Shown here piece after piece: positions 5,672 through 55,480 of a stretch of DNA of 64,000 nucleotides (position 1 is its first letter; each line of letters starts with the position of its first letter). The stretch is from Prorocentrum cordatum (Eukaryota). The position numbers and the translations under genes are program-made. The notes beneath the pieces were generated by a model. That model was given only the letters and a program-made list of their open reading frames with translations, did not search any database and was not told the DNA's origin. The DNA lies in the NCBI GenBank assembly GCA_963575745.1, contig CAUYUJ010000002.1, positions 2,108,001 through 2,172,000 of the forward strand, written 5' to 3'.

Positions 5672-5738
<67 letters not shown>

Positions 5739-20005: not shown

Positions 20006-20083
20006 GTCTGGGCCACAGCTGCGGCGCTCGGCGCCCTGTCCCTCGCCCTGGCCGACGTCTCCGGCGCGCACTTCAATCCGGCC
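20006..20083 (+). CDS. Single exon of an aquaporin / major intrinsic protein (MIP) gene
   Basis: Pyrimidine tract and CAG|G acceptor; reads VWATAAALGALSLALADVSGAHFNPA, containing the MIP SGxHxNPA signature; followed by a GTGAGT donor. Confidence 0.85.
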
Positions 20084-20693
20084 GTGAGTCCGCCCTCCGC
20101 CCGCCGCGCGCGCGCGCGCCGCGCGCGCCGGCGAGCGGGCAGGGCCGTCGCCGGCGCCGTCGCCCAGATCTCCGACGATCTTTCGTGCGATTGTCCCCGA
20201 TTTTCGGTCTGCGGGTCTGCCTGCGAGGTTCGGGCCTCCTTCCCAGAGTTCCGAGGAGTTGTCCGACGACGTTCCGTCTGGGCGTTCTCGATCTTCGGTC
20301 CGGGCTTTCGCTTCCGGTCTTCGGTTTCCGGGTTCTCGGTCTTCGGTTGTCGGTTCTCGATCTTCTTTGTTTTTACGGCTTTTTGGTTTGGGGGGCCGTG
20401 AACAACCAGCCCAGGACGAACAGCTGCCCTTGGCGAGGTGATGGAGACCTCTGGGGCCTCTGCAGGGGAAGAGGACGGAACGGCATGAACAGACGCTTCC
20501 GCAGCCCCGAACGCTAAGGTTTCCGCTGCCTTTGCCTCGTTCTCGCTTGTTTCCTTGATAGCGTTTCGCTCGAGGGTGGTACTAGTGGTAGCAAATGATC
20601 ACAGAAGAGTCCCGACGGGGAGGCCTAGACCGTCCGGTCTGGCAGCCGTTCTGCTTTATATTCCGTAACCGTTTTTTCAGCAGTCTTGTTTCA

Positions 20694-20720
20694 GGAGAGA
20701 ATATCTCACCCCCCACCCAA
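20694..20720 (+). repeat. Left terminal inverted repeat
   Basis: GGAGAGAATATCTCACCCCCCACCCAA; 21/27 ungapped match to the reverse complement of 54498-54524. Confidence 0.75.
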
Positions 20721-21109
20721 GAAACCCCTTGGGTGGGGGGCCCAGGGCCCGATGGCTCCAAAAATCCAGAACGCCGTTAAAATAAACGCGCGAGGCAGCG
20801 CCCCGCGTCATTGTAGGTCCGTGCGCCTTGCGGCGCGCGGGTTACTAGGAAGGGGTATTCATGGGGTGTGTGGGTCGAGTAGGAAGAGACATTCATTGGG
20901 GGGGGTCTGGCGGCCGCGTCGCAGGAATGACAGGTAGGGCGGCGCACGTGTAACGGGGGGGGGCGGGTAGACGGGCGGAGGAGAAACCATGGTGATGAGA
21001 GGAGGGGGCGCGCCTGATACTGAAAAGGGAAAGGAGGAGGACAATTCAGCGAGGAGTAGAGTGTGTGGCCTCCCTCTCTTCTCCCTCCTTCTTCCCCCGC
21101 TCCCTCGCA

Positions 21110-21345
21110 CTCGGCGTCGTCGTCGTCGTCGTCGCCGTCCGTCGTCGCCCGTCGTCAACGTCGCCGTCGCCATCGCCATCGCCATCGCCCGTTGTCCGTC
21201 GTCCGTCGTCCGTCGTCCGTCGTGCGTCGCGCGTCGTTCGCCATCGGTCGTCCGTCGTCTGTCGTCCTCCGTCGTCCGTTGTCCGTCGCCCCCGTCGTCC
21301 TGGCCACCGTCGCCGTCGCCGTCGTCCTCGTCGTCGTCGTCGCAG
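21110..21345. repeat. (GTC)n/(GTCC)-type low-complexity repeat upstream of gene A
   Basis: Directly visible cgtcgtcgt / cgtccgtcgt runs. Confidence 0.8.
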
Positions 21346-21412
21346 GCGTTTGGCCAGCGACCGAGCGAGGCCCTCGGCCCCCGCCGTCGCCCTCGTCGCC
21401 CTTGCCGCGGCC

Positions 21413-23151
21413 ATGGCCGTTTCGGTCGCGGCCGCTCTCGCCGCCGGCCCCGCGCCCGAGGGCGCCTCGGCGCCCGCGGCGCAGACGCCGCCGTCGGCGC
21501 CGCCCCCGCCCTCTGGGGCAGGCGCGTCGCTGGCCGCGGGGGCCAGCAGCTCCGCCGCGGGGTCGGCCGCCGACGCGCCCGCCGCCAAGAAGCGCAAGGT
21601 CGTCGTCGACCCCGACCTGCGCCTCTTGTCGCAAATGCTCGTCGACAAGGCTTCGCCTTCTTACTCTTCCTTCTTATCTCCCCCATCCCTCGTCCGTCCT
21701 GCCTTCATCCCATCCCTCTTCTCCACTTGCTCCTCCTTCTTACCCTCCTCCCTCTTCCTTCTTACCCATCCTCCCTCTCCTTGGTCATCACTCCGCTTGC
21801 TATTCCTTCTTACCTTTCTCTCCCTCTTCTTCCTTCATCCCGCATCCCCCGCTCCTCATAACCCCAGCCCGCACCTTGCTCCGTCGCCGCGTCACCCCCC
21901 CTCCGCCGCTGCCCGCAGGCGGAGCCCCCGCGCGGCACCGCGGCCGAGGTCAAGTTCAAGCACCTTGAGAAGATCAAAGGCGTGTGCCTGGTCTTGCTCA
22001 AGGACCCGATGGGTCATGGCAGTCGGCGTAGGATTAGGAGTAGGGGTAGGAGTAGGGGAATGATGATGGATGATTGAGGGCGGGGTGTGGGGTAGGAGCA
22101 GGGGTAGGAATCGGAGTAGGCTCAGGATCCATATGCCTTGGGGCGTTAGCCCATGCGGTCGATGTGGAATGGGGTCGGAGTGAGAGTAGGAGTAGGAGCG
22201 GGAGTAGGGCCATGAGAAAGAGCAGGAGGAGGAGTATGCTTAGGAGTATGAGTGGGATCAGGGGTATAGCATGGGCTGTTGTGCCCAGGGCTCGTGGCCT
22301 CATTCTCGCATCCTCCGCGATCGCCTCGCCACCTCCGTCGTCGTCGTCGTCGTCGCGTCGCCGCGCCCGCCCCGCATCGCGCGGCGCTGCAGGACACGGC
22401 GAAGACCGCGCACATCGAGGTCGAAGCGTCCAGGCCGCTGTCGGAGATCACCCAGACCCCGATCAAGCGCGGGGCGAAGAAGGCGGAGCTCGAGGCAGAG
22501 CAGTTGAACAGGTCGCCCACCTTCGACGCCACGAAGGTCAAGCACATCAAGGATATCCCCGCGGCGTGGATGCTGCAGTGCATGAAGAACTGCAAGGGTG
22601 CTGGCGACGTGCCGCTCGCCGTGGTCACCCTCATTACTGGCAGGTCGGGCGTCGCTTTGAAGCTCATCGTGCACTACCTTTCTGGTCACTCGCTGCCGCC
22701 CTCCCCCCTCTCCCCCCCCACCTCCTGCTCGCTCCCCTGCCCCTCCTCCCGTCTCCTGCCCGCTCCCATCCCCCCGCGCCTCACGATTATGAGCCTCCGC
22801 CTCACCTCTCATTTTGTCACCTTCCCCCTTCGCCCCGCATTCGCCCCGAGGGAGAGGAGGGGCGGGGCGGGGCATGAGGGCGAGGGCCATGAGGATGCAA
22901 GAGCACGGAAGATGATGACGCGGGTGACGATGAAGATAAGGTGTGAGGACATGGGGGGGGGTGGATGGGGATGAGGGGGGAGGAAGGCGCGTCGCGGCCT
23001 TCGTCGCCGACGTCGCCGTCGTCGCCGTCGCCCTGTTCGAGCCCCCACCCCCTCCTCCAATGGCCCCCCCCCCCTCCCGAGGGGGCGCGGGGGGGGGGCT
23101 GGAGGAGTGGGCAATGTTTGATCTTAACGACGGCGTCGGCGACGACGACGA

Positions 23152-23182
<31 letters not shown>

Positions 23183-23187
23183 CGCGG

Positions 23188-23234
<47 letters not shown>

Positions 23235-24778
23235 ACGACGACTGCGACGACCGCGACGCCGCTGACGACGACTGCGGCGGCGGCGATTGCGACGACGGCC
23301 GCGAGCCAGGTCTTGACCCCATGTTCCAGATTGGAGGGGACATGCTCGTGAAGGACAACTTCGCGCGCTTCTTCACCCAGATGGTGAATGAGCGGAACCT
23401 CCTCGCCGTCGCAGGTGGCTTTTTCCAGGAGATCATGGTTGACGGTCAGCCGAAGTTCGTCCACCCCCACTGCATCTTCTCGGTGGCCAGGGGCAAGGAG
23501 AGCTCTGCGGACGACGAGGACGACGAGGAGGAGGCGCACCGCTAGCATCGGCCGCCGCTTTCTCGTCGGGGTGCGGAGGAGAGCGGAACGGGGAGTGGAT
23601 GAGGAGCGGGAGGGTCGAGTGGCATGGGCATGGGAGGTTGGGAAGGATAGGGGGGTGGAGCGGATGGCGAGGGTGAGCGGGGGGGCCGAGCAGGTCGGGG
23701 TGTCATTGTTTCGCTCGAGGGTGATTCCCTCCCGCCGCTCACCTCGCCACTCTCCCGCCCTGCTCCTCATTTCCCATTTTCCGCCCACCCACTCCCCATC
23801 CACTCCGTATCTCTACCCTCCCATTCCCCGTCCATTCCCACTCCCTGTTCTCCCGCTTCCCGCCCGCTCCGACTCCTACTCTCTACTCTCCCCCTCCTTC
23901 TCCCACTCCTCTCCGCTCCCCCCCTTCCCGCCCCTGCCCTATGCGCCCCCGCTCGCCGTCCACCCCCGACCCCTCCCCCCCTGCCCCTTCCCCCCCCACC
24001 TCCATCCCGCCCCGCCCCGCATCTATGCCGCGCCGCAGCCCGACGTCATCAAGAACAACGTGACGCGCGAGAGCTACGCGCTGCAGGAGAGGTTCCCTGC
24101 AGGCGCCCTGCCTCTTGTTGTTTGCGAGGATGTGGAGATAGGAGGGCAGCGCTGGCGATGAGGGCATGGCGCCCGGGTCGGCGAGAAGGGCGGGGGATGA
24201 GGGCGCGCGGGGGAGGAAGGTTGCATGAGCGATGCTGAGGGGTGGGCGCTCGGGACGGAAGGGTGGGGAGGGGGGTTCGTGAGCGAAGATGCGCGGATGA
24301 GAGGAGCGTGGATGGGGGGTGGGAGGGCGGGCGGCGAGACGGGCAAGGGGCGCGGGCGATGGTGGCGAGGCGGCAGGGGTTGGGGAGGAGGGGTAGGAGA
24401 GCACCGATGGCGAGGGCGAGGGGGGCGTAGGGGAGTGCGCGGAGGAGTCGGGGTTATGCATCTGCGCCCCCCACGCTTGCGTTCGGCCCAGCCCGCCGAG
24501 GCAAAGAGATCATGGACAACTATTCGGTGGCCAGCGCGCGCGTCACGATCATGAACCACAAGGTCTTCATCACGACGCTCATCGCGAAGAGGAAGGAGGC
24601 GAAGGGAGCGAAGGTCATGAACCAGCAGAAGGCGGTTGACTTTGTGAAGGCGCTGGAGCAGAAGAAGCAGGAGGCCGTCGTCACCGTGAGCTCAGAGATG
24701 GTGATGGCCGCGCGCCGCAAGCGCGTCAAGGGCGCGGCGGGGGGCCTTTCTGCCCCGTCGACGTTGGGCCCCTCGTGA
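21413..24778 (+). CDS. Accessory gene A: unknown protein of about 392 aa, 6 exons, with an NLS-like PAAKKRKV motif
   Basis: Exons: 21413-21649, 21919-22002, 22393-22684, 23310-23533, 24039-24102, 24501-24778. Donors are GC, GA, GT, GC, GC. Phases join into 1179 nt without internal stops, and complex coding-like islands alternate with low-complexity introns. Confidence 0.75.
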
Positions 24779-25767
24779 GGCGTGGCTGCCCGTTCGGCAT
24801 CGCATGTTTTGATGCGGATCGGGTCCTGGAGTGGGTTGGCCCTGTACATCGGTCGCCCCTCCGTGGCTCGGCGGTCGGCCCTGTAGTTTTCGATGCAGGC
24901 CGATCTCGTAGTTTCTCGTGGGGGCCTGGGCGTGGCAGCTCGGATCCGTGCTCGGCCGTCGTAGCTTCTAGGGGGTGGCCCATGGCCTGCTCGCTTGCTT
25001 GTTGGGTAAGTGCGCGCACAGGCTCATGGGGCGGTCGAGCGTGATTGCATATCACCCCCCAATGATGTTCAGGACGAGGAGGTTGAGGCGGGTGGAGGGG
25101 GGGGGGAGCGCGAGGGGGACGCGGAGGATGATGGGGGGGGGCGAGGAGGGGCATGGTGATGATGAGGAGGATGAGGAGCCTGATTGCACACCACCCCCAT
25201 TGATAATGGGGGGATGATGGGGGTGATGAGGAGGCGGGCGGGGTTGAGGGCGATAGGGGGAGGGGGGGGTGGAAAATGGGGTGAATCTGATGATGGGCTT
25301 ATCTGCGTGCCCCCCCCATTTGAGGAGCGGGGCGCGTGCGTGCGCGCGTGCGCGCGGGGGAGGGGGGGGGGGAGGGGGTGGGATGAGGATGAGGAGGGGG
25401 GTGAGGAGGGCGAGGGGGGTGGCGATGCTGAGGGAGGGGGGGAGGGGCTGGTAGGGACCAGGTTGCCCCCAGAGGATGGCGTGGAGGATGAGGGGGATGG
25501 CGACGGGGGTGAGAAGGCGGAAGACGCGGAGGATGAGGAGGGTGATGGGAGGGTGTGCCCGCCCACGAGGCACGCGCTGCGCGCGCTGGCTTCAATTCGG
25601 CCCCCAGGCAGCAGGCTATGGCTGACTGGCAACGGGGTGCCACGCATGGTCGAGCGTGGGCTGAATCGGAGCGTGCTCAGTCTCAACTTTCCGTGAGGAA
25701 AAGCACATAGGCAGGCGGAGTGGTCGGGTTCCCGCCGCAATGATCAGCGTGTCAGTGTGTCGCCGCC

Positions 25768-25941
25768 TTTTTATTTTTTCTTTTTTTTTTTTTTTGGTCT
25801 TTGTTTCTTTTTTGTTTTTTTTCTTATTTTTTTTTTTTTTTTTTCCTGTTTTTTTTTTTTTTGTTTTTTTTCTTTTTTTTTTGTTTTTTTTATTTTCTCT
25901 TTGTGTTTTTATATTTTTTTTTTTTTTTTCCTTATTTTTTT
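25768..25941. repeat. Impure poly(T) tract present only in copy 2
   Basis: About 175 nt of almost pure T; absent at the homologous site of copy 1 (about 1214). Confidence 0.9.
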
Positions 25942-26125
25942 CCTCACTGTTCCACGTTCCGTGCGGCTCGTCGTTGGCCCATTGTCAGGGGCACGGGCCT
26001 CTGCGCCTGCGGGTGGTGGCGGTGGTTTCCTGACGTCGGCTGCGGCGCCGCAAGTGGGCCCTCCCCCCGAGCCCGATCGAGCTCGCTGCACCCCGTGGTT
26101 GGCGCCCTCTGGCACGCATCGGCGG

Positions 26126-29100
26126 ATGGAAAGGGCCCGCAGCAGGCCCGCGGTAGCATTGGACAGCGTGCCAGGTTCTGCACATTTCGGTTACCCCTCC
26201 CCCCCGTGCCTCCTTTCGCCCCCATGACCGCCGCTGTCGCTCAAGCCCATTTTGGGCGCTCCCCCCTTCAGGGGCGGGGGGCTCGGGGCGGTCGCCCCTA
26301 GCGGCCATGCAGCTCCAGTGCTCGATCAGGGCGTTCAGCCTGTACGACGACGAGCCAGCGCTGGGCACCGTGCGGCAGGTCATCGCCTCGACCGTCACGC
26401 AGGAGGTCAGCGTCCTGCCCTCGAACAAGGACCGCCACCTTCTATGATTTGCATTGTCAGGCAACTTGGCCCCGCTCCGCCGTAGTGGTTGTTCAGGGTT
26501 GCTTTTGCGTCTGCTGTGTCTTATTCTCCAGCCGCGCCGATGCCCCAGAGATGTCGCGCGGGCAGCACGTCGCATCCTCGGGCGCTCTTTGGGGGGTGAG
26601 GGGGTGGGAGGATGAGAAGGGCAACGAATAGGGTGGGCTGGGGGGGGGGGGCGGGGGGGGAGGGTTCGGGTGGCATTTCGTTGGGCGCAGGGGGGGTACC
26701 GTGACCACGACAGTAAGTAGACCCGCAGGTCGATACACGACGAGCAGGACGACCAGGTCGACGAGGCGGGCGATGCATGACGCAAGTGTGAACGAACGCA
26801 GGGGGTTGGGAGCAGGTGGGCCCATGAGGAGTTGCGGGGATTCGGGTCGAGGGAGGTGCGAGCTCGTCCTGGGAGGCCTTGCCTCTTCCCCCCTTCATGT
26901 GGGCTGCCCTGGTCGAGCGGTCGGCGCCGCGTCGGAACGTGTGCTTGACTGGTTGCGAAACGTGTGTGTGTGTGTGTGTGCCATCTTGGGGCGCTCCTGA
27001 GGGGCATTCCACGGGCGCTGGATGGCATTTTGGGGGTACCTGATGGTCTTCTCGGCAGCCTCGGATGTCCCAGTGAGGTCAGATCGGGGCAAGTGCACCG
27101 AGAATTGGTCTCGGGGGGCCATGGGGGTCGCCTTTGTTGGGCTCAGCGTTGCGCCCTGGGGCGCCCGAGTTGCGTGAGTGCCCCCCCCCCCCTCTTGGGC
27201 GCCTTCGGCATGCTGGTAGGTGGCCGCGGGCTCCAGTCGGAGCGATGTGGTGCAGCATCTAGTGGCCTGGGGGTGTAGTTGGTTATGTCGGTTGCAATGT
27301 ACAGGTTTGTTGGCGTAGGGTCGAGGCCGTCCTGTGCCATGCTGGAGGCTCGCGCCTCGGCATTGCACCCCTGTCCCGACCTTGGTAGGGCGGCGCCGAG
27401 GAGTAGACAACCCCACCCCCGAAGGTGCAACATGATGGGTTGGGCGGTTGAGCTTTTTAGACCTTGTCCACACATGCGGCTGGCGGGGCTGCATGCGCTG
27501 CCAGGTTGTTGTCCCGCCTGCGCATTGTGCCCATCCTAGTGCGACCAGCCCCCGCCAGGAGTGGGTGCTGTGGATGGACCCCGACGACGAGGCCGAGGAG
27601 GCGATGCTCGTCCCGAAGGGCGTGGACCTGGACGACCCAGCTTGCGAGATCGAGACCCACTTCGCGCAGAACTTCTTGTCGTTCCGCCACTACGGCAGCG
27701 GCGACGAGTTCAAGGACGTGCTCCAGGCCAGCGACGGCACTCGCATCCCTCGGAAGGACATCAAGCAGGCGCACACCATGGCCACGTTCACCTTGATCGA
27801 GGAGGCCCCTGGGCGGGAGGCTCTGCAGGCGAATGGTGCAGTATTCGAGCACGATTGGGCTGGCCACGTGTTCATTGATTTCGTTCATTTAGTTGACGGG
27901 ATGCACCTCCCGCTCCCGTACAAAAGAGCATCGGATTGGTTCAACAAAAAAGTTGATCGCTGGAGGGAGTGGGGGGCCAAGGCTGGTCTAACGCGAAGCT
28001 GTTGCAGGAGCAGCCAGCCTTGCGGCGGTCAGGAGCTGCGCGATCATCCCGAGCGGATATTGCTCTTCCCCAGCGTGTCCGTGAAGCTGCTCGTCGTCAT
28101 GTCGCATCGGGCGTGCTTCTCGAGCGCCGAGAGGCACGGCCAGCTTCGCGACCATGCCACGCGCCAGGCTTTCGGCAACTTGTACAACAGCCTCCTGGGC
28201 ATGCTCCCGATGAACTTCACGATCAACGTGCGCGTCGACCGCTTCGTTCAGAAGGCCGCCCCGATGGGTCGCGGCTGGGGCAGAGCGAGGGGGCCGAGGG
28301 GAGGAGGAGGACGCGGCGGCTGGACTTGAGGATCCTGATGCGGCGGTAGGCCGTGGAGGTGGGGGGGAGAGGGGAGGGGGGAAGGAGGCGGGGGGCGTGG
28401 GGGGGGAGGTGCGAATTGAGGCACGCGCGCGGAGGAACGTTTTGGGGGGGCGCGGCGGCGAGGAGGAGGAGGAGGACGTGGTGGAGATTTGGTTTATGAG
28501 ATGACGGGAAGGAGGTGGAGGACGGGGGCGGATGATCTCAGCATCGGCGACGGCGGGGGGAGTGGTGGTTGGGCGGGGTCTGGGCGTTGGGCTGGGGTGG
28601 CTGGGTCGGGTTACGGCGGGGCGTCGAGGTGGGCTCATCGAAGATAATGTGTGTTTCGCCTTCCTGTTGTTTGAAAATGTTTGGGGTTGATGTTGCGCGT
28701 CGTGCGCTGCTCGTCGCACTCGCTGCGCCGCTCTATTGCTGTGTGTTGTTGCGTTGGTTTGTTGGCATTTGTATTTCAAGACTGAAGTGTTGCAACTGCG
28801 TTTAAATAGTTGTTGGTGGTTGATTTTTCGTGCGCATTTGCTGTTCAAGTTATTTTAACTCGTCATGGGTTTGGCCAGCGTCGTGGTCATCCAGCTCCCC
28901 AAATATGCCCCATCGCCTTTAATCGCTAGTCGTTTTCTCGTTCCTTATTGCCGCGCGTGGCGCGCGCCCCCTTTCCGCGCGTAGCGCGTTCCACGCAGTC
29001 TCGCCATTTCCTGTTTCAGGAATGGCTTCAAGGTGGTGTTCCAGTCGGCGTTAGGACCTCATAGGTTTTGGCGTTCAGGTTTACCTTTTTTTCCGCGGTT

Positions 29101-30445
29101 GGGCCGACGCGCGGGAGCTCGCATAAAACTCGCTCGCGTTGTTGTCAACTGGCCCGCGCGGCCTTTTGACGGCGCGGCGTGCACGTCGCATCTTCATGCT
29201 ATCTGGTCGTTCCGTTGTTCATGATTCGCCGCGCTGGCTAAAGCCTTGCCCATGTCATTTACCACGCGCGGCGCACAATCCCCGATGCGCCCGTGCTCGC
29301 ATTGTGCTTCTCAAGCAGGTTGCCGCCCGTGTGCCGGGCCGCCCCCGCGTGCGGAGCCGCGTCTTGTTGTGCCGCGTGCTGTTCCTACGTTGAAGGGAAG
29401 GTGCCGCGCGCGTGCCGTGCCGCGCTGCGCCCGCGCGCCGCGCCGTGCCGCGCCGTGCCGTGTCGCGCTCGCTTCCTGGGCTGCGCAACCTGCGCCGCCC
29501 GCGAGCGGGGGCGCGCCGTGCCCGCGCTGGCCGTGCCGCGCCGCGCCGTTCCGTGCCGCTCGGGCGCCCGCGGCGCTTGCGCGAGCGGCTTGCCGTGCCC
29601 GCGTGCCGCGCAGCATTGCGATTGGCTTCTGTATATCGCCGACCAATGGATCACGCAGTTCGAATCCGATCCGCGAACTTCTTCCGCCGCCCCCTACAGG
29701 TTCACTCACAGCGCGCTTTTGCATTCAGCGTTGCCGTTTCGGGTGCTCTAACGCGCGCCGCCATGCTTCCAATCGGGCGCGCTTGTGCTCGACCGATAAA
29801 CGCGGGCGCGCGTGCGCCCGCGGGCAACGCGAATGAGTCGCCTCGGGTTGGGGCCCGAGCCTTCCGCCACCCTTCCCCCGCCACCTTTCGCCTCCGCCGT
29901 AATTGGCGCCTGCCCATGGCGCGCGCGCGCAGGGCGGTCGGCGCGGCCGACGAGGACATGCCCCCGCGGTTGTCTGCGCTACACAGGGGCCTCGCGACGA
30001 GCGCGCATCTGTGGGCCAACCTATGTTTCGTAGATCGAAGCTTCCATTGCGTTAGTCGGGGCGTCTGCCGCGTGGCATTCGGCGCGGGCCCCCCCGCGAT
30101 ATGGGCGGGGTCAGCGAGCAAGCCATCCGCGCGGCGAAGGGTCATGGTCGAGTTCGAATGCCCCCGCGGCAGGGAAACAGCATTGCGCGCGCCTGCTTGC
30201 ATCGGCGCGGGCCCCATGCGATGCCGCCGCCGTTCGGTGGGCGGGGGGCTTCCAGGCGACGCCTTTTTACGGATTCCGCGACAATGCCGTCTACTACCCT
30301 GTATTGGGCGGCAGACGCGGGCAGAGTAGTCAGCGACGCTGCGGCGCGCTTGGCTGACGCGGCGCAGTGGCCCGACGTCGGCATCCACGCGCCCTCGCCG
30401 AGGAATTCAGTAACGGCAGCGTTTCCTTCCCGATCGCGCGGGCCA

Positions 30446-30512
<67 letters not shown>

Positions 30513-42500: not shown

Positions 42501-45500
42501 AAATGTTCATCATCCTGGACCCCGCGGAGTGGCAGGCCTTCGAAGTCCAGTACCGCTCCCCCCTCCACCAGGCGGTGCGCCTCGAGATGACTGTCAAGGG
42601 CCCAGCGTCGAACTCGGAGACCGACGTCGACCTGCAGGACTGCGGCGGGCTTGGGGGGGGGAGGGGGGGGGCGAGGGTGAACGCAAGCAGCAAACGGGGT
42701 TTAAGGAGGAGGGTGCAGGAGGAGGAATCATATAGATGAGCGAGGGCACTGTTAGCTGCTGAATGCCATGCCCGATGGGCGGCTCGCCGTGGGCATGCGC
42801 GTCTACCCCCCTCCTCCTGCGCCCCTCCCCCCTTCCCTCCCTCCTCGCTATCCTCCCTCTCGCCCTTCCCCCCTCCCCTCCCTCTTCCTCCCCTCTTCCC
42901 CCTCCCGCCTCCCGCTCCCCCCCCAACGCATCCCCCCGCCCTTCCCTCTCCACCCCCCCCCACCTCCCACCTCTCATCCTCTTCATCTTCCTACCTCCCA
43001 CCCCCGCCGGCGGGAGCGTCGGGGGCGGGGGAGGGGGTCGGGCGGCGGCGGCCAGGGGGTGCGGATGGGGGGGGGGGAGGGTCGGGCGGGATGGCGAAGG
43101 AGGGCGGTTCGGGAGGGGTCGGCGGGCAAGGGGGGGGGGGAAGGAGATCGGATGGGGGTGCGTTTTTTTTGGGGGGGGTCGGGGAGGGGGGTCGGGAGGG
43201 CAGGGGGGGATGATGGACGGGCGGGGGTCGAGGGGGATACCTGGTGACCTGGGTGGGGCGGGGCATTGGGAAGGGGGGCCTGCTTCGACGCCGTTCTGTT
43301 TTGCAATTGTGTTTTCAATATCGCTACGTTTTCGTGTTATGTATGCCCCACAATTTTAAAATGGCAACTTTCGTAATTTAGCTTCGAGTCGCGCCGTCGT
43401 CGCGCATGGCCCGTACAACATCAGTCTAGCGCAGATTGTTGTTTGCATTGGCGCCGCGTCTCTAAATGCGATACGGTACTTCGCCGCGTTGTCGCTTCGA
43501 ACTTACTGTTCGCCCAGCTTCGCCTGCCCGTTGCGCGCGCGGAAGGGGCGTGCAAGCACATGCGTGCCATGCGCGTCGGGTGTCGATGTATTTTTTGGGG
43601 TGGCTGATCGCGCTGTAGCTGGAGGTGTTGGCGCAGTCGCCACATGCGTTTCCATCTGTGTATTCGCCCACAAGCGCCCGTTAGGGCACCGCGTATGTCT
43701 TCGCACAGCCCCCGCCGAGCTCCCCCCCGCATGCACCCCGCGCCTTGCCTGCGAGCGGCCGCGCCGCCCTGAACATCCTCAGGGCGGCGCGGCAATTCTG
43801 CCTTCTGTCCGACGCTTGCTCGCGGCGCGGCGCGGTGGCGCGGGCGGGCCGCGCGCGCCGCATTGCGCTTCCCAGTCGGGGCTTAGGTTGCCCTGAGCAT
43901 CGCGTGCGGCGCAATTGTGTATGGGATCGCACGTGTGTCTCTTGACATTTTCATGGGCGCGTTAACATGCCGCTCGCTTTGCTCATCGTGGGCAGATGTG
44001 TACATCTACATTTATACTTGTCTAGATATGCAGCGAACTCGGCATTGATACCGAATGATAATACCGTAGCGGTGGCGATAGCGGGATCGATATTGATATG
44101 GATAGCTTATGGTATCGGTGCAAGCATGGATTTCGGCCGTGGGAGCGGCAGTAGGATCGATGGATAGTGATATCGCTTCTGGTATCGGTTGTTGGTGGGT
44201 CGTGAGATCGTCGCGGTGCGGCGACCATTGCGCTCTCCGACCGCCCCCCCGTTTGTGCGCCCGTGGTCATTACCCCGCCCCGCCCCACGCAGAATGCCGT
44301 GCGGGTCGCGGGCCACGCGGGCGGCTGCGGCGCCGCCAGTGGGGCGCATCGCGGACATGTTGTATACATGGGCTGACGACGCATGCAGCATCGCCGTTGG
44401 CCGATATGGGGGAGGGGTAGTCGGGGGCGCGGGAGGTGGGTGGGGTGGGGCGGGGGGCGCTCGCGCGCGCAGCGCCTTATTGGCAGAAAACGGCTTGCCC
44501 CGCAATGCATTTGACGCGCGAGTTCTCGGGTGCCCGCATCCTCGCGTAGTTCTCCCGATGATGGTGCGCCTCCGTGCACGAGCGAAGATGCCGCGCCCCC
44601 TCGAGAGAGGGCGCCGAGCTTGGCCAGTGCCGCCGCCAGAGATCGCCACGGGAGCCCGCGGAGGGGGGGGCTTGGTGGGTCGGCAGCCGCTGCTGCCATG
44701 TTCAATGGTGGTGTCGTTGCCAGACCATTGCGTTGGGCGGTCGTTTTTTCCCCAGCCCGCGCCGCTGCGCCGAGCCCCCGTTTGGGCCCGCGGCGCCATG
44801 TGTTCCCCGCTCACCTTCCCGCCCTCCTCTCCCGCGCCCCCAGGGCCCCTTCGCGCGCCCTCGGCATGTCCCAGCGCGTTGCCCGCACGCGGCGCGCGGC
44901 GGTCGGGGCGCGACTTGCAAGTGGCATCATCGCGCATGCCGTTGAACGCGGGTTCGCGCATGCACCGTTCCGCAGGACATGCGTGCGGACGTGTATGCGC
45001 AGCGTTGGGCGCCTTTCTGGCTGTTCTGGAATGCGCGGTCGCGCCGCCAGGGGGTGCGCCGTCGCCGCCGCCGCGCTTTCTTCTTTCAGGGCGTCGGCGG
45101 CTGTCGCCGAACATCGCGCAAGCACGGCGCTGTCCGCGTCGGGCGACCATGGCCAGGCGCGCGAGCCATCGCCGTTGGCGGGATGCGGGCGAGCGTGGCG
45201 CAGGCGCGCGGGTTGCCCGATGTGGCTAGGTGCCAGGCCGAAGAGATGACGCGGAGCCGCGCAGCGGGGAAATCCGCCAAGTCGGGCGGGCCCCCAGGAA
45301 TGAGCATTCCGCGCCGAGATGCGCTCCGAGGCAAGGCGCGCCCCGAGCAGCGGGCGGGCGCCCGCGCCCCAGTGCCCGCCCCCGCATGCGGCCGTGGCGG
45401 CGGATGCTCGGCCCTCCGCGGGCAGTTCGATGCCCGCGTTTACATTTCCGTTGCTCTCTCATTGAAAAACGCACGGCGCGCGGCCTACGTTGACGCGGGG

Positions 45501-48500: not shown

Positions 48501-50462
48501 TCACCGTTGCCGCATTTATCGGTTGCCACGTTCCAATTTCCGTCACCATTTGTCACATGGGTGTTCCCGTGTTTCATGGTTTGATGTTGTTTCGCATGGG
48601 TGGAGAAATCCATGTCCGTTCGTAAGTTGCGATTCCTTAAGGTCGTCCGCTCAACGTGTGCACGTGTGTTCAATGGTGTCGAATCGGGCCCGCGGGGGAG
48701 GGGGGCGCGGGATGGGGCGGCGCAGGGGTGGAGAGGGGGGGGGGGGTCGGGGGCGGGATGGCGAGGGAAGGGAGGGGATGGGGGGGGTGGGGAGGGGGTC
48801 GGGGGAGGGGAACGGAGCTTTCGTCTCCTCCGCCCGTTTCTGCTTCCCGCTTGTCCTTGCCGCCCGCCCCCTCCCTCCTCGCGCGCACCCCCGTCGCCCC
48901 CCTAGAGGATGGCGCCAAGTACCCCCGCGTGCCCATCGTCGCGGCGCAGGTGGGCGACGTGATGCCGCTGCTCACCCTGGCGGCCAAGCAGGGGTTCTGG
49001 AAGCTCCCAGCCTGGTGGATGCGGGAGCTTTGCGACTACATGGAGGTCGACTACAAGTCGGCGGGCCTCGCGGACTTGATCGTGGCTGCTTGCGGGAAGA
49101 TCCTGGCCCCCATCTCCCAGGAGGGCTTGTTGGCGATCCTGCAGAAGCGCGCCTTGTCCTTCGAGGACGACCGCTGGACAGAGGAGTTGCTGACCTTGGA
49201 GTGGGTCACGGACGCGTTCGACCAGAAGGTCTCGGAGGAGGTCGCGAAGGAAGTGAAGAAGAGCCACACCACCACGACCGAGAAGCAGGACTTCCACAAG
49301 GACCTCAACAAGTTTCGGGTGCAGGGGGGTTGCTCTAAACATTCAGCGTCGAAATGTCCACTCGCCAGTGCCAGTGCGTTCGTTTTGCGCTTTGTGAATC
49401 CCCTCCCCCGCCCCGCCCAGGGGCCATGCCCAGCGCAGTTGTCGCGTCGGCTCCTGGTCGGCTTACTCGCGAGATCGTTGGGGAAGGTGGGGGAAGGGGC
49501 GGGGCAACGGGCGGGGGCAATCTGAGTTTGCATCACGGATAGGAGGTCGTGGGCGCGGGCGACGGGGGTGGCGGCGAAAACAGATCTGCGGGTCAGGGTG
49601 CGGACAGGCAGGGGCGGCGGCGGGGTGGGCGACGCGGGAGCAGCAGGAGGTACGTATGATGAGGAGGACGTGAATGAGGATCATGTTGAACGTGATGATT
49701 GGGATCAGTAGGGCCAGGAGGGTGAGGGCCAGGACAACGAGGAGGGAGCCCGCCCATCCAGAGACGATGCCCAGGTGATTTGCCCTGATCGGTTGAGTGC
49801 GGCATCATCTGGCAGTTGTCTGGGGGAACCCTGGAGGTCCCTTGGTGTAATTTTGGGGCCCGTCTGGGGCAGCCCTGGGAGTCTTCCAGGGGGCATTATG
49901 GTGGGGGATGCGGTCGGGTCACCCTGGAGGCTTTGGGTGCCATCTGGAGGCTTTCTTGCAGTGCATGGGTCATGGAACGCTGCTTTCTGAATGCAGCCTG
50001 CTGCACCTTCAGACCCCAGAGTAGCCGAGCACGGCGACGACGACGACGACTGAAACGACGACGACGACCGACACCGACGACGACGCCGACGGCGACGGCG
50101 ACGGCGACCGACGACCGACGACCGACGACGACGACGACGACGACGACCGAAGACCGACGACCGACAGCGACGACGACGACGACCACGATGACGACGCCGA
50201 CGACGAAGACGACGACGAAGACGACGACGAGGACCGACAATCGACGACCGACGACCGACGACCGACGACCGACGGCCGACGACCGACGGCCGACAACCGA
50301 CGACCGACGATCGGCGACCGACGACCGACGGCGACGACCGACGACGACGCCCGACGACCGACGACCGACGACCGACGACCGACGACCGACGACAACCGGC
50401 CACCGACGACCGACGCCGACGACCGATGCCGACGACCGACGCCGACGACCGACGACCGACGC

Positions 50463-50493
<31 letters not shown>

Positions 50494-50529
50494 CGCCGAC
50501 GACTGACGACGACGACCGACGACGACGAC

Positions 50530-50560
<31 letters not shown>

Positions 50561-51115
50561 CGACAACCACGGCGACCGACGACCGTCGACCGCCGACCGA
50601 CGACCGACGACGATGGCGACGGCGACGACGACGACATCGACGTCGGACGGCCCGTGTATGTCGGCCTCTGTATTTGAAGCGGGCCTCGCCAACGATCCAT
50701 CCTAGCTGCAGGTGCCTGGCATTATCGCGTCGCCCGTCGTCTCCCCCGAGCCCCCCCCTTGCCTCGCCGCCGCCCATCCCAGGTGAAGGTGAAGGGGAAG
50801 CCGCCAGCGGCGAAGAGCAAGAACCACCCCATGTACCAGAAGGACTACAAGGTCGCCGCGCTGAGCCCAGAGAAAGACCTCAGCCAGCGCGAGGCGAAGG
50901 CGTACTGCCCTCCAGGTTGCCACATCTGGAGGGCGAACGTGAGGGGAGGGTGGCACTACCATTTAAAGCCGCACAAGCGCGGCAGCTGTCCCTGGAGCAG
51001 GTTTGGAGGCGACAGCTTCGCAGCCATGAAATCATGCATGGCAGACGCGTGGAGGCTGTGGCTGTCCGACCGCGGGCTCCCCGATTCCCACTGCCCGATT
51101 CCTGGGCTTCTCTGA
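26126..51115 (+). CDS. Large DDE-type transposase (about 1,476 aa from ATG 26126, or 1,458 aa from ATG 26307); hAT/P/MULE/Kolobok-like DxxH architecture; possible C-terminal AP2-like domain
   Basis: Exons: 26126-26174 (tentative), 26302-26429, 27559-28254, 34649-34894, 35833-36039, 36362-36481, 37844-37941, 38952-39278, 39477-39663, 40365-40777, 41312-41800, 41911-42637, 48908-49318, 50783-51115. Total 4431 nt, in frame to TGA. Candidate catalytic motifs: LSMAGPDGT (D 36392), LNIATDMG (D 39154), DVAH (39235-39246), QQLVEDSF (E 41966). Confidence 0.75.
28640..34380. mobile_element. Decayed nested insertion in a transposase intron, copy 2; boundaries approximate
   Basis: Homologous to about 3870-9600; lies inside the 6.4-kb intron 28255-34648. 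Confidence 0.45.
43290..48680 (-). mobile_element. Second decayed nested insertion or composite; possibly includes a minus-strand non-LTR remnant; boundaries approximate
   Basis: Lies in the 6.3-kb intron 42638-48907 and has AT-richer ends. Weak minus-strand APE-like remnants (VNVGRAP near 45490; RPTQWSGNDTTIE near 44720) are interleaved with GAC and GGT microsatellites. Its start is also present at about 18750-19533. Confidence 0.35.
50030..50645. repeat. (GAC)n/(GACC) compound microsatellite in the last transposase intron
   Basis: Directly visible gacgaccgacgaccgacgac runs. Confidence 0.9.
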
Positions 51116-51683
51116 GGCAGGGTGCAACGGCTCTGGTTGGTGTTGCGACGGGCCCAGGGTCCATTCACCAGGACAGGTTTCTGCGAGCAAGCCGTTGCCC
51201 CCTGGCCTTCGGGGTTTTCTGCGCAGTTTCATTGGTTTTTGCGTTCGGGCTGAAGGGGGCGCCCACGCTGCGGATCGGCTCTTCGAACGGCGCGGGATGC
51301 GCCTTCTGAGAAACGAGTGCCTTCGCATCTCCCAGTCTCCGTCGAACGGGCGGGGGGGCCATGGCAGGGTCGTCGCCCCGCCCAAGGCTTTACGGCCACG
51401 TTCTGGCCAGAGGTTTTGGGGGGAGAGGAGGGGGGGGGGGTAATAGGTGAAGCGCCGGCTCGGGGCCATGGAACGGGGCGGTGGCGGGAGGAGCGTTGCC
51501 AGGGCAATGTTTCAGGAGGTGGGCTCGGGAACTGCATCGAATGACATGGGCGGGTGTGGAGGGGGCGGTCTTGGCATGCAATATGGCGTGCCCCCCGTGC
51601 GCGCGGCCCCGTGCCGCCGCAGCTTCTAGCCAGAGGGATTTGTTGTTTCGGGTCCACGGCCGCCTGGGAGCTGCGCGCCCGCG

Positions 51684-53491
51684 ATGGCCTCGCAGAGCGA
51701 TCGCGGCGAGGAGCAGTTCCGCGTCGCAGCTTTCGGCGCTTCAGAGATGCAGGAATGCGCCAGCTCTAGCTTTCGAAGGGGCGGTCGGGGGGGGCGTCGA
51801 GGGGCCCCCATCGAGGGCACCGCTCACGTGAGAGATCGGCAGCGCGCGGGCGGGGGTCGACGCGCGACCCTTGCAAGCGGCGCTCGGCCGTCGCGGTGGG
51901 GAGCTCGTCGGGGGCAGGCTTGGAGTCGAGTCGTCAGACGTTCGAGGGGTTCGGGCGAGTACATGTGGGTTCGTCGTGGCTTTGGCGGCGTCTCTGGGGG
52001 ATGGGGGGGGCCTTCGGCGGGGGCGGGCGGGCGCGCGGGAATCGCGCGCCCGCTTTCTAGAAGGTGCTTGGTGCTCAGTTGCGGGGGCCGATGCTGCGCG
52101 CCCGTCCCAGGGGGAGGGGTCGCTAGTAGCGACGGCGTCGGCCCGAACCCCAGGAGCTGGAGCTGAACGGGAAGATCCAGCTGTGCAACTCGTGGGACTA
52201 CGGTTTCTGCTGCATCCGCGGCCCCGCGTGGGATTGGGAAGGAATCGACCGTCCCGCTGGTCAAGTTTGCGGGCCTGATGACCACAGGTTCGGAAGCACG
52301 GCCGCGCCCAGCCGAGCTGTGATCAAGTCGTGGTTGTCCAGCGCCTTCTTCAATGAGCCGCGCGTTGGCGGGCGCGAAGATGGCGGCCTCCACATGGGCG
52401 GCTTCATGGTGGACCGCTCGATCGTGGCAAAGTTCTCCTTCGCGGGCGAGGATCGCCACTTCAAGGCTGACGACGAGGGGCTCTTCGACCTTCGCAAAGT
52501 CGTCACCATCGCGCACTTGACGCCGCTCGAGCGCCTGCTCCAGGTCATCCAGGTGAAGGACGCGACGGTGGAGCTCATCCAGGATTGGCTGCCGAAGCGG
52601 GCCGACGAGTTGGAGTGCGCCGTCGTCGACATGAACAACCAGCGGCGCTTGATCGAACAGGTGCGCTTCTGGGGGGAGAAGGCCGCCACGGACATCTTGA
52701 ACAGCCACGCAGCCGTCGTGCCCGTCATGAAGTCGCTCTGCGTGGACTGCATCGAGAAGGCCCCGCGGGTGCTCATTTGGCAGTGGGGGAGCGTCGGGGC
52801 GGGGTGGCACGAGCAGGGCTGATGGGGCCGACTGGGAAGCGGGAGGGGGCGGGAGGGTTAGGGCGAGGGCGGGGCGGCGATGAAAATGAGGATGCCGACG
52901 GTAGGGGATACGAGGATGAAGGTGCTGGGGGCGAGCAGGATGAAGATGAAGATGGCGTTGGCGAGGATGGCGAGGACGAGGGCGAACAAAATCATGGCGA
53001 GGTTGAGGGGCAGGATGGGGGTGGTAACGAGGACGGCGATGAGGATGATGACGGCGATGAGGATGATGGCGGCGAGGGCGGCGATGGCGGGGGCCAGGAT
53101 GAGGACGAGGAGGGTGGCAGCACTTCTTTCTCCTTGCGCATTTCCAGCCTCAGTGCCTTCAGCTTTCTCTGCCTCCCCCCCCCTCGTCCCCTTTCTCCTC
53201 GTCGCCCCCATCAGAGTCTCATCATTCCCATCTTTGTCTTCGTCCTAATGCCCATCCCCACCTTCGTGGCCGACGGCTCCTAGTCGGCGCCGCCTCGTCC
53301 ACCCTCCTCTTTCTTTGCCTTTTCCTCGCGCCCCCCCCTCCTCGCCCGCCCCCGCCCTCCTTCCCCTCGCCGTCCATCCCCCCGCTCTGCTTCCCCATTC
53401 CACTTCGCCGACCTCCCCCCCTGCCCATCGGGCCTCCGCGGAGGCGGCCAAGAAGCGCAAGGCCAACCCCACGGCGGCCTCGAGCCATTGA
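51684..53491 (+). CDS. Accessory gene C: unknown protein of about 240-244 aa, 3 exons, with a C-terminal KKRK NLS-like motif
   Basis: Exons: 51684-51752 (CAG|GA donor), 52154-52759 (CAG|G acceptor, AAG|GC donor; ELELNGKIQLCNSWDYGF...CVDCIEK), and 53432 or 53444 to 53491 (..AAKKRKANPTAASSH*). All junctions are phase 0. The last acceptor is ambiguous. Confidence 0.65.
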
Positions 53492-54497
53492 GGGGCGGAG
53501 CCCGCTCGCTCGGGCGCGGCGAGCAAGCGGGGAGAGGAGCGATGAGACGCGGCGGTGAGGAGGCGCGGGATGGCGAGGGCGGAGGTTCGGAGATGGTGAG
53601 GCGAAAGGTGAGGAGAGGAAGGCACGGGCGAAGCGGGGGTGAGGAGGGCCCGAGGAGGGGGCGGAGGGGGGGCGGAGCGAGGGGAGGGCGAGGTAGGGGA
53701 GGATCAGGAGGCGTGGGCATCAATGGATGAGAAGCGGCGGGCATGGGTTCCCGTCGTCGTCGCTTTCCTTGCCCTCGTCGCCTCGGCCGCGTTTCGCCTC
53801 CGTCGTATAGGTCACCGTTGTGCTTGTGTGTATGTCTCGGCCGTGGCCGTCGCCTCCGTCGTCATGGTGCGAGTGGCTGGTCGCCGCCGCGTGCTGTCGC
53901 GGGGCAAGCCCGCGCGTGCCTGCAATTCGCCCTCGCAGGTCTGGCCGCGCGCTGGACCCTGCCGCGCCTGGATGCGGCGCGAGGGCAGTGCGATTGATAA
54001 GGGGAAATCGCCCGCCGCGGAGCGGGCGTCGGCGACGGGGGCAGAGGCAGGGGGCCTGGCAGGGCCCGTTCGGGGGGGCGGCGGGAGAGGGGTGGGGGAG
54101 ACGGTGCAATGATAAGGGTGGTGAGGTGGACAAGTATAGGAACGGCCGCGCGAGAGATCCCCGACCGATGCGATCACGCCCGCGACCCGCTCGCGCCCGA
54201 CCGACGTAGTAGCTGCTGGAGTTATGCCCGCGACCGTGCCGCATGTGTTGCGGGTCGTGCGAGGTTTAGATCGCCGCCGATAGCAGCGATGAGACTTTGG
54301 TTTTCGGCGCCTGTTGTGCATTGGTTTACTCTCGAATGCATCGTCGTCACTACCCTTATTGACGTTTCACCGCCCTCCTTGGACTCGCACGGCTCTCGTC
54401 CGTGGGCGGCTGGAGAGACGGAGGGCGAGGTAGCGGGTGTCGTCATTCGCCCTGCATGCTGGCCTTCGGGCCCCCCAGTTCTCGCTAGGGGGGCGAA

Positions 54498-54524
54498 TTG
54501 GGGTGGGGGTGTGATAAATTCTCC
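54498..54524 (-). repeat. Right terminal inverted repeat
   Basis: Reverse complement is GGAGAATTTATCACACCCCCACCCCAA; followed immediately by TCA. Confidence 0.75.
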
Positions 54525-54589
54525 TCAATTGTTTTTTACGGTAAGAAACAGTTGGCTGCGGCGCATACCAACACGGCGGGCGGGGTTCC

Positions 54590-55480
54590 CCCACTTTGGA
54601 CGGCCGAGGCACAAGGTGAGGGCAAGACGAAGCTCGAGCGGATCACGGAGGAGAAGAAGCGGCTGGAGGGCGGTTTCTTCGACGGTGACAAGCCCGACTG
54701 GTTGCAGCATGAGCTCGCACAGCACGACAAGAAGATTGCAGCGGCGCGTGAGACCCGGGACAGGGCCAATCCGCTGTCCGCGCAGCTGCGCGACGCCAAC
54801 TGCCAGTCCGCGAAGGCCACCAATCAGAGGGTGGCGGCCGAGGCGGAGGTGCAGAAGGCGCGCGAGGTCCTGGCGAAGGCGGTGGAGCGGGATACGGCCG
54901 CCAGGCAGCAGGAGACGGAGGCCAGGTCCCATGAGCTGGAGATTCGGGCCAGGTTCACGCTTGAGAGGCCGAGCTCGCCTGTCACGGACACGGACGTCGC
55001 CCGCGCGGCGCTCGAGGGGCTGGCCGAGCAGGCTGGCACCTCCCTCGAGGCTCTCGGCCTTGCCGCGGGCCTCGCGCAGCTGGACGAGCGGGTGGCCGCG
55101 ACCACTCCTGCTGCCCCTGCTGCCGGCGTGCCAGCTGGGCCCATGGGGCGGCGGCCAGAGCCTCACGGCGCAGGAGTCACAGATGGAAGCACGGCAGTCG
55201 ACCAAGAAGCTAGGCCGACGACGTCGCGGAGGAAGAGAAGGCCCGGCTGCTGGGCGAGGCAGATGTGCCCGATAAGGACCAGCAGCCCGAGCAGCACACG
55301 CGGTACTTGGAGGTGCTGCAGATCCAGCGCGCCTACAATCTCAAGCGTCAGAAGTGTGGGCGATGGTCTGGTGCATTTGGTGCTGAGCGGGACGGCATTC
55401 GGCATGCCCTTCTCGCCGCTGCGGGCAGGGGTGGTGCAGTACCTACGCAGCCAGAACAATGTTCCTGCCTGGGCAGGTGA
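54590..55480 (+). pseudogene. LINE ORF1 remnant (coiled-coil protein)
   Basis: Heptad-like A/E/K/R-rich sequence (KLERITEEKKRLE...PLSAQLRDANCQSAKATNQRVAAEAEVQKAREVL) directly upstream of the endonuclease; frameshifted toward its 3' end. Confidence 0.6.

Follow-up and report, generated by a model that had tools for sequence, protein, structure and literature searches.

A 64,000-nucleotide (nt) stretch of the genome of the dinoflagellate Prorocentrum cordatum (assembly GCA_963575745.1, contig CAUYUJ010000002.1, positions 2,108,001 to 2,172,000; hereafter the window, whose positions are counted from its first base) contains a large, intron-rich gene on the + strand, at 27538 to 51109, that belongs to a protein family with hundreds of members and no previous characterization. 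There is a good motif-level case for reading its product, with a predicted length of ~1,400 to 1,500 amino acids (aa), as an RNase H-like transposase of the Asp-Asp-Glu (DDE) type, and more specifically of the C/DxxH class. The gene is bracketed by candidate terminal inverted repeats (TIRs) and by a short direct repeat that could be a target-site duplication (TSD). We tentatively favor, with a little less than even confidence, the reading that the region holds a cut-and-paste DNA element that looks autonomous, or else its very recent relic. The gene and its protein family are real and plausibly form a new lineage of a known transposase class; the boundaries of the element, its TSD, and its mobility are all putative.

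Exon-like pieces were picked by composition, on the basis of the periodicity of G+C content at third codon positions (GC3). This yields 16 blocks, all on the + strand and all devoid of stop codons, with a GC3 of 0.66 to 0.93 versus 0.34 to 0.58 at second codon positions (GC2), set in a non-exon background that is flat at 0.67. The blocks are laid out as one large transposase-like gene (27538 to 51109, ~23.6 kb, with at least 11 exon blocks) and two small units, at 22375 to 24709 and 52343 to 52795, in agreement with the original prediction of a large, intron-rich block of co-oriented genes. Three genes had been counted there: the co-oriented coding blocks hold up, but the supposed second and third genes look like one, because the N-terminal extension of two long relatives, P0023 and P0153, is colinear with window positions 27763 to 28275, 35818 to 36048, and 36341 to 36496. 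The joining of these N-terminal exons to the catalytic core is itself a predicted one. Each splice junction has in-frame solutions of the form G(T/C/A)...AG, some junctions close only with GC or GA donors, and the best in-frame acceptors are uniformly AG followed by G. GC and GA donors are possible in these genes, and GC/GA-AG introns make up 25 to 74% of introns in the Symbiodiniaceae (excerpt of PMC11453091). Introns, invoked to explain why open reading frame (ORF) scans miss these genes, account for part of this only, as the exons themselves also match no library model.

The blocks of the main gene, all on the + strand, can be followed from end to end by comparison with its relatives. The first block (27538 to 28281) encodes an N-terminal extension colinear with residues 86 to 280 of P0023 and P0153 (blastp E value of 3.5e-9); a phmmer search of this exon against PDB sequences gave no match. 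A further extension block (35818 to 36048) corresponds to P0153 residues 348 to 426 (blastp E value of 7.6e-7, also recovered by phmmer), and the next (36341 to 36496), matching P0153 residues 418 to 467 (blastp E value of 2.3e-11), carries the sequence SMAGPDGTK with a candidate first catalytic Asp (GPDGTK at 36386 to 36403). A small coding-like block at 37814 to 37969 (52 codons, no stop, GC3 of 0.90) can be joined in frame to both of its neighbors and is probably part of a helix preceding a basic RKR stretch. The rest of the protein matches a profile of the family (A1, described below) in seven colinear blocks (38974 to 39279, 39475 to 39663, 40395 to 40775, 41310 to 41819, 41906 to 42592, 48932 to 49336, and 50804 to 51109), which together cover profile positions 52 to 999 of 1008 in a local hmmsearch of the peptides. 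The first of these, delimited as a coding block at 38974 to 39275 (A1 positions 52 to 149, E value of 4e-23), contains both the second Asp (DMGPD, 39154 to 39168) and the DxxH motif (DVAH, 39235 to 39246). Three blocks lie colinearly between DxxH and the Glu (39478 to 39663, 40395 to 40775, and 41310 to 41819; A1 positions 149 to 527, E values of 1e-13 to 5e-31), and the candidate Glu block, at 41906 to 42592 (QQLVEDSFGKVK), includes VEDSF at 41963 to 41977 (A1 positions 520 to 749, E value of 7e-55). After a gap of 6.3 kb, two C-terminal blocks (48932 to 49336 and 50804 to 51109; A1 positions 757 to 895 and 906 to 999, also recovered by tblastn) complete the protein, which ends in CPxxGLF as in its relatives.

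When the exon at 41894 to 42658 is used as a HMMER query against 1.84 billion cluster representatives, 393 representatives are recovered at E values of ≤1e-3, 102 at ≤1e-10, and 22 at ≤1e-30, the best having 48% identity. Full-length relatives are 948 to 1,090 aa in length, apart from three longer forms of 1,386 to 1,461 aa, and are encoded on contigs of 3.3 to 8.7 kb. An organism name was attached to 5 of the 30 relatives that were looked up, and those named comprise several distinct P. cordatum paralogues and one sequence from a Pyramimonas transcriptome set. Both the size and the distribution of the family appear transposon-like, given the 393 representatives and the presence of several distinct paralogues in P. 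cordatum. Three additional homologue searches returned no sequences with the second-Asp exon, four with the family profile (the query and three close relatives), and, with the N-terminal extension of P0023, that sequence alone; a search for the family in metagenome, viral (IMG/VR), and prokaryote genome collections recovered no relatives. Among the papers searched on dinoflagellate transposons, new superfamilies, and C/DxxH families, we found none describing this protein family. The relatives closest to 41894 to 42658 (P0001, P0002, and P0004) are ORF fragments of ~260 aa that stop where the window exon stops, which suggests that the position of the following intron is conserved in related genomes.

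The catalytic motifs were read from the alignment and profile A1, built from 14 full-length relatives over 1008 positions. Here, D92 (in ...WPxLxxxxDQGSD), H120, N147, and E541 (in TQxVEDGF) are invariant in all 14 sequences and D117 is present in 13; in a broader set of 59 sequences, E541 is kept in at least 90%. D117 follows D92 by 25 residues and opens the stretch D-x-S-H-G-x-W-N-D, in which an Asn stands four residues past the His. In an RNase H fold, 25 residues are too few to separate the first Asp from the second. The gap between D92 and D117, too short on this count, fits instead the spacing between the second Asp and the C/DxxH motif of ISCth4 of the IS256 family (D175, D241, C262xxH265, and E348, where the motif opens a helical insertion domain; excerpt of PMC7780238), and D92 is therefore read as the second Asp. 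The signature that defines the C/DxxH superfamilies of DDE transposases (as given in an excerpt of PMC9587614) is present in the alignment and in the window: a DxxH motif lies past an invariant second D and ahead of an invariant E.

The window shows the same order of motifs, namely, D (GPDGTK), D (DMGPD), DxxH 24 to 25 residues later, and E (VEDSF), and P0023 has the corresponding layout D431, D555, D579xxH582, and E981. This pattern in the main protein, D...D-(24)-DxxH...E, supports the C/DxxH type implied for the transposase in the original prediction. The Asp of GPDGTK is a candidate for the first catalytic Asp: SMAGPDGTK is conserved as SMAGPDATK in P0023 and P0153 (blastp E value of 2.3e-11), and the stretch between the first and second Asp can be read by eye as three consecutive strands, a helix with a basic loop, and a strand ending in the second Asp. 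Another candidate, D53 of a VDN motif, was rejected, being replaced by His in P0023 and lying in a helix-like context. Since D, D, H, and E are all retained, the protein is likely, as judged from its sequence, to be an active enzyme.

The letters of the proposed element ends are as originally described, i.e., imperfect 27-bp TIRs beginning with GG and ending with CC. The left terminal 27-mer (GGAGAGAATATCTCACCCCCCACCCAA, opening with GGAGAGAATATC...; 20694 to 20720, + strand) and the reverse complement of the right one (GGAGAATTTATCACACCCCCACCCCAA; 54498 to 54524, - strand) are identical at 21 of 27 positions, giving GGAGA...TCTCC, and are each other's sole match at ≤7 mismatches anywhere in the window on either strand. 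The 3-bp direct repeat TCA is also present on both flanks, at 20691 to 20693 and 54525 to 54527, such that the span first proposed for the element, 20691 to 54527, includes the candidate TSD. A gapped alignment of the two ends extends to ~62 nt with the common block TGGGGGGCCC, and both ends share the block GGGGGGCCC and a subterminal C/G-rich hairpin at equal offset. The left hairpin (20709 to 20740, + strand) has a perfect 13-bp stem (CCCCCCACCCAAG / CTTGGGTGGGGGG) and folds at -21.7 kcal/mol (z of -4.7, with 0 of 200 shuffles equally good); the right hairpin is weak (z of -1.3, with 21 of 200 shuffles equally good).

A scan for inverted 24-mers, covering a space of 7.9 × 6.9 kb (19.6 to 27.5 kb versus 51.1 to 58.0 kb) with a cutoff of ≥19/24 matches followed by a complexity filter, returned 198 pairs, a single one of which survived the filter. 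That pair, at 20690/54528 (TTCAGGAGAG... versus TTGAGGAGAA...), corresponds to an alternative register of the same termini, in which the left repeat starts at 20690 and the right repeat ends at 54528; it is bordered by the 4-bp direct repeat TTGT (20686 to 20689 and 54529 to 54532), and its ends are TT..AA. A longer TSD of 6 to 7 bp derived from the GTTTTTT/TTGTTT repeats was considered and rejected, as the ends would turn asymmetric, and a local alignment, with gaps, of the 2.7-kb flanks was discarded because it drifted into low-complexity sequence. The DNA immediately outside the termini (20650 to 20690 and 54529 to 54560) is, by eye, roughly palindromic, with TTCCGTAACCGT and T6 on the left and T6 and ACGGTAAGAA on the right; insertion may have taken place into a T-rich or hairpin-like target.

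Taken as a cut-and-paste element, the region would work as follows. Its one intron-rich + strand gene, at 27.5 to 51.1 kb, would encode the ~1,400- to 1,500-aa transposase, with its catalytic center formed by the Asp of SMAGPDGTK (36.4 kb), the Asp of DMGPD (39.15 kb), DxxH, a presumably helical insertion of ~400 residues, and the Glu of VEDSF (41.96 kb). A multimer of this protein would bind the imperfect terminal repeats GGAGA...TCTCC, each followed by its C/G-rich hairpin, by analogy with IS256/MuDR, hAT, and P. The enzyme would then cut both ends, with the His of DxxH placed at the scissile phosphate (which the C/DxxH His of Hermes contacts, according to an excerpt of PMC7780238), and would integrate through a staggered cut of just 3 or 4 bp.

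Several observations weigh against this reading, some concerning the protein, others the ends, and others a second copy of the interior. With respect to the protein, the candidate first Asp rests on the window and on two near-identical P. cordatum paralogues, P0023 and P0153. The third long form, P0142, lacks significant similarity in this stretch. Of the 19 relatives whose sequence spans the second Asp, 16 (13 of them 948 to 1,090 aa long) are missing the corresponding part of the protein. We think that these 948- to 1,090-aa forms may be attributed to 5′-truncated ORF calls, because the window has introns at exactly that place. Searches of model libraries are negative throughout. When the 16 exon pieces are compared with Pfam at E values of ≤5, just four weak, unrelated matches appear (E values of 0.03 to 0.23). 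The 22 long relatives match no Pfam family at E values of ≤0.01, and 14 relatives at E values of ≤10 match five unrelated families, each in one member (best E value of 0.029). NCBIfam and PHROGs return two and three unrelated families, respectively, through single members (E values of 0.09 to 0.97), PDB sequence profiles return chance-level matches in a low-complexity stretch only (E values of 0.43 to 6.2), and the best ESM Atlas score, 0.81 with P0053 as the query, is at chance level. The Pfam, NCBIfam, PHROGs, and PDB-sequence scans of the family contain no match to any known transposase family model.

It is very improbable that the protein is something other than a transposase, i.e., another enzyme or a protein of viral derivation. 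Such an origin would accord with the failure of every known transposase model to match the family, with an RNase H fold that is read at the level of motifs, and with the name "RNA-directed RNA polymerase" that UniRef automatically assigns to two P. cordatum relatives (P0153 and P0075). However, Pfam scans of the relatives, these two included, detect no polymerase family, the invariant positions include no GDD-like motif (on which ground a reading as an RNA-directed RNA polymerase was rejected), and IMG/VR contains no relative; conversely, a C/DxxH layout fits both the identity and the spacing of the invariant residues. The UniRef name looks like an annotation artefact.

With respect to the ends (SIGNIFICANCE), the terminal inverted repeat is by itself no better than chance in an ungapped test. 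In the 2.7 × 2.7 kb beside the gene block, there are 33 inverted 27-mer pairs with at least 21/27 matches, mostly (CGT)n; inverted matches of 21 to 22/27 arise in 10 of 30 first-order Markov simulations; and the left end aligns with four 100-nt chunks elsewhere in the window at least as well as it does with the right end. The TSD register is also ambiguous, since, with a single insertion to go by, the 3-bp TCA (20694/54524) and the 4-bp TTGT (20690/54528) fit equally well. The 3-bp TSD at odds with the transposase class, a central point of the original prediction, is thus not established, and the TTGT reading would remove the misfit altogether, 4 bp being inside the 4- to 10-bp range quoted for this group of transposases (excerpt of PMC3706591). 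No further copy with these termini was seen in the metagenome, viral, and prokaryote genome collections; a terminus-pattern scan of metagenome contigs produced six loci with GC contents of 0.38 to 0.57, none of them window-like, where an estimated ~15 matches were expected by chance. Finally, a LINE-like element (a long interspersed nuclear element) abuts the right end, beginning no more than ~40 nt from the right terminus.

These points about the ends bear on a further possibility, namely, that the region does hold a real transposon of this family but that the mobile unit is not 20694 to 54524, its ends lying either nearer the gene, to the exclusion of the two small units, or further out, with the right side broken by the LINE-like insertion. 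We consider this quite unlikely. The LINE-like unit directly after the right terminus would suit it, as would the occurrence of full-length relatives on contigs of just 3.3 to 8.7 kb and the lack of a detectable link between the two small genes and the family. But there is no better inverted pair between 19.6 to 27.5 kb and 51.1 to 58.0 kb, and the contigs of the relatives may be short because they derive from transcripts or are fragments.

A further opposing observation comes from a second, partial, co-oriented copy of the interior, which the original prediction missed. Window positions 1 to 19533 (copy 1, + strand) correspond to 24549 to 44076 (copy 2) at 97.7 to 99.5% identity by self-blastn. 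Copy 1 is truncated by the start of the window and by a gap of 100 Ns (19534 to 19633), includes neither element end, and lies within 25 kb of copy 2; it could be a real neighboring copy, a tandem duplicate, or a haplotype scaffolded in tandem. Its presence so near, at 98 to 99.5% identity, also counts in favor of the mobile-element reading. The copies differ by 3 substitutions over 3,875 exon nt, versus 72 substitutions plus 70 gap positions over 15,693 non-exon nt (Fisher p of 1.2e-4), so that divergence in exons is six-fold below that outside them. So little change in exons would be expected of alleles, or of duplicates, of a selected gene and less so of neutrally decaying transposon copies; unstable microsatellites may contribute part of the non-exon excess.

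Duplication of a host gene is accordingly a serious rival to a mobile element, and one that we regard as possible although, on the whole, doubtful. The region would then be a host locus with a lineage-specific or domesticated transposase-derived gene that was doubled either by tandem or segmental duplication or by the scaffolding of two haplotypes across the 100-N gap, and the TIR and TSD would be chance features of C/G-rich, T-rich flanks. Besides the contrast in divergence, this would explain why the copies are co-oriented and adjacent with an assembly gap between them, and it is compatible with the 21/27 inverted match attained in 10 of 30 simulations and with the ambiguous TSD register. 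Dinoflagellates commonly have tandem gene arrays and one-directional gene blocks (excerpt of PMC11453091), and the P. cordatum protein set retains relatives of the window protein as ordinary gene models; the models that trained the gene predictors for this set were screened for transposable elements (excerpt of PMC10666404). On the other hand, a host locus accounts poorly for the great size and diversity of the family (393 representatives), for its several diverged paralogues in a single species, and for the retention of the invariant D, D, H, and E. The proposed ends, moreover, are the only inverted pair outside low-complexity sequence that brackets the block, and have matching hairpins, and nothing to the right of copy 2 corresponds to the left flank past the gap (19634 to 20690).

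Two local differences between the copies were recorded. Copy 1 has, at 17670 to 18118, a 223-nt tandem duplication of what is 42433 to 42658 in copy 2, comprising the 3′ part of the Glu exon and its likely donor; 223 nt is not a multiple of three, and the duplication may do no harm provided that splicing uses the first donor. A T-rich microsatellite of ~175 nt inside the element (25768 to 25945) is ~177 nt longer in the copy 2 version than in that of copy 1.

Returning to the transposase reading, we file the protein as one that would work like a C/DxxH DDE transposase yet fits no named superfamily, a comparison made through Pfam models and published descriptions. Among the features diagnostic of hAT, MuDR, Kolobok, Dada, and PIF, none of those examined was found. 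In local architecture, MuDR/MULE and IS256 share with the window family a second Asp that stands in a D-x-G context and terminates a hydrophobic strand, a [C/D]xxH motif 21 to 25 residues after that Asp (D241/C262xxH265 in ISCth4 versus D555/D579xxH582 in P0023), and a Glu placed after an inserted region. MULE transposases presumably also carry an Asn four residues past the His, as the window family does. The overall spacing is different, the first and second Asp being 66 residues apart in ISCth4 versus ~124 here, and the second Asp and the Glu 107 versus ~426. No match to the Transposase_mut or MULE families of Pfam was obtained with the exons (E values of ≤5), the 22 long relatives (≤0.01), or the 14 relatives (≤10), and the TSDs of the MuDR group measure 4 to 10 bp (PMC10045372), versus a candidate of 3 or 4 bp here.

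Dada resembles the window family in its DxxH motif, with Asp rather than Cys, past the second D, in its very long protein encoded by many exons, and in its large elements; its protein has 1,402 aa and 11 exons, and it is present in the alveolate Perkinsus (excerpt of PMC3706591). According to the same excerpt, Dada inserts into tRNA and snRNA genes and generates 6- to 7-bp TSDs; it has no TIRs, and its zinc fingers are of the CCCC and CCHC types. In contrast, the window contains an inverted terminal pair and has no tRNA gene or Rfam match anywhere in its 64 kb, no zinc-finger pattern was seen in the family alignments (by eye only), and the D-D-E spacing is ~124/426 rather than 68/176. Kolobok, the closest analogy according to the original prediction, combines C/DxxH with 5′-RR..YY-3′ termini and frequent extra genes (excerpt of PMC9587614). 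The analogy stands in respect of C/DxxH and, solely in the 20694/54524 register, of the GG..CC ends; it fails at the flanks, which are TCA or TTGT rather than the TTAA of Kolobok's specific 4-bp TSD, and the ends become TT..AA in the alternative register.

The TSDs of hAT elements (8 bp) and of the P element (7 to 8 bp) exceed the candidate repeat of 3 or 4 bp, and neither exons nor relatives match the hAT dimerization, BED, THAP, or P-element models of Pfam. Common to hAT (Hermes), the P element, and the window protein are C/DxxH and a very large insertion that separates the second D from the E and is helical in the former (excerpt of PMC7780238) and presumably so in the latter. As to PIF/Harbinger, no DDE_Tnp_4 match was found, and the core of the window protein, which includes DxxH, is far longer (second Asp to Glu, ~426 residues); the TWA target typical of PIF/Harbinger, cited in the original prediction, is not seen either, the flanking repeat being TCA. 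We take the motif around the Glu of the family, VE-x-FG-x-x-K, to resemble that of PIF. Short TSDs are a further likeness, with lengths of 0 to 4 bp for PHIS (PMC10045372), and an accessory gene is usual in PIF (excerpt of 10.64898/2026.05.26.728016). TSDs of 3 bp are otherwise reported for Zator and AcademX (PMC10045372).

More ambitiously, the window could represent an undescribed, superfamily-level lineage of C/DxxH DDE transposases in dinoflagellates and other marine protists, with a transposase of ~1,450 aa, an insertion domain of ~400 residues, hairpin-bearing TIRs, a 3- to 4-bp TSD, and active, intron-rich, multigene elements of 20 to 35 kb. We consider this proposal, taken as a whole, somewhat unlikely; its claim of continuing activity comes from the two copies at 99% identity, which suggest it. 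If it is true, a TSD of 3 to 4 bp would fall below, or only at the limit of, what has been reported for the C/DxxH class; confirmation of the ends together with such a TSD would point to an unusual cut geometry for this class. Dinoflagellate genomes are huge and repeat-rich, and their autonomous DNA transposons are almost uncharacterized. Dinoflagellates gain introns via transposon-like "introners," ~72% of which are unclassifiable (excerpt of PMC12130899), and a family with a C/DxxH DDE layout, no library model, and diverged members numbering in the hundreds would be a candidate to supply the enzyme for part of introner-type activity; it would also add a branch to the hAT/P/MuDR/Kolobok/Dada group. 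Members of the family are currently filed in protein sets as "unnamed protein product" or "RNA-directed RNA polymerase," leading to inflated gene counts.

Three further coding-like features lie within the proposed element. The small upstream gene, gene A (22375 to 24709, + strand), consists of blocks at 22375 to 22701, 23279 to 23542, and 24488 to 24709 with no stops and a GC3 of 0.85 to 0.89 versus a GC2 of 0.34 to 0.45; it has no Pfam match at E values of ≤5 and no relatives among the collected proteins. The small downstream gene, gene C (52343 to 52795, + strand), has 151 codons, no stop, and a GC3 of 0.91 versus a GC2 of 0.36, with no match in Pfam (E values of ≤5) or among PDB sequences (phmmer) and a best ESM Atlas score of 0.82, which is at chance level. 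Genes A and C may be cargo or accessory genes of the element or plain neighbors. A coding-like block at 34643 to 34942 (+ strand; 100 codons, no stop, GC3 of 0.81 versus GC2 of 0.38) falls outside any gene model and likewise lacks Pfam matches (E values of ≤5) and relatives among the collected proteins. A Pfam scan of the stop-to-stop ORFs of at least 90 aa between 20 and 55.2 kb (124 on the + strand and 140 on the - strand) identified no transposase family; its sole matches at E values of ≤0.01 were to MIP (one ORF of the left flank) and to low-complexity families (three other ORFs). The nested insertions that had been subtracted from the element's length were not confirmed, in that no ORF of at least 90 aa on either strand has a family match to support them.

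The window as a whole has a G+C content of 59 to 72% per 2-kb bin and two 100-N gaps, at 19534 to 19633 and 62642 to 62741. In the left flank, the MIP match is a weak aquaporin fragment at 19982 to 20398 (Pfam E value of 2.9e-4). A 1,557-nt contig from one sequencing run matches the window exactly, but only at 20004 to 20090, in a pattern like that of a spliced host exon. One DNA run, X1, contains 31% of the sampled words of 19634 to 24548, and its contigs match the interior of the element exactly, at a word depth of ~3.5 to 6, with low-complexity joints predominating. Also in the left flank, the stretch 19650 to 19950 is covered by three unrelated runs with word depths that range from hundreds to thousands, at a likeness of 85 to 90%, and is probably a high-copy short repeat resembling a miniature inverted-repeat transposable element (MITE) or a short interspersed nuclear element (SINE).

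On the right, the degenerate LINE-like unit occupies 54495 to 60590 (+ strand), with a coiled-coil ORF from ~54.5 kb, endonuclease-like and reverse transcriptase-like segments read by eye, and a weak RNase_H match at 59886 to 60587 (E value of 0.0034). Within the proposed element, long (ACG)n/(TCG)n arrays occur in both orientations at 23127 to 23299, 36749 to 37103, and 50031 to 50635; these give rise to inverted arms that are 74 to 80% complementary and 13.7 kb apart, and they dominate both repeat finding and read placement.

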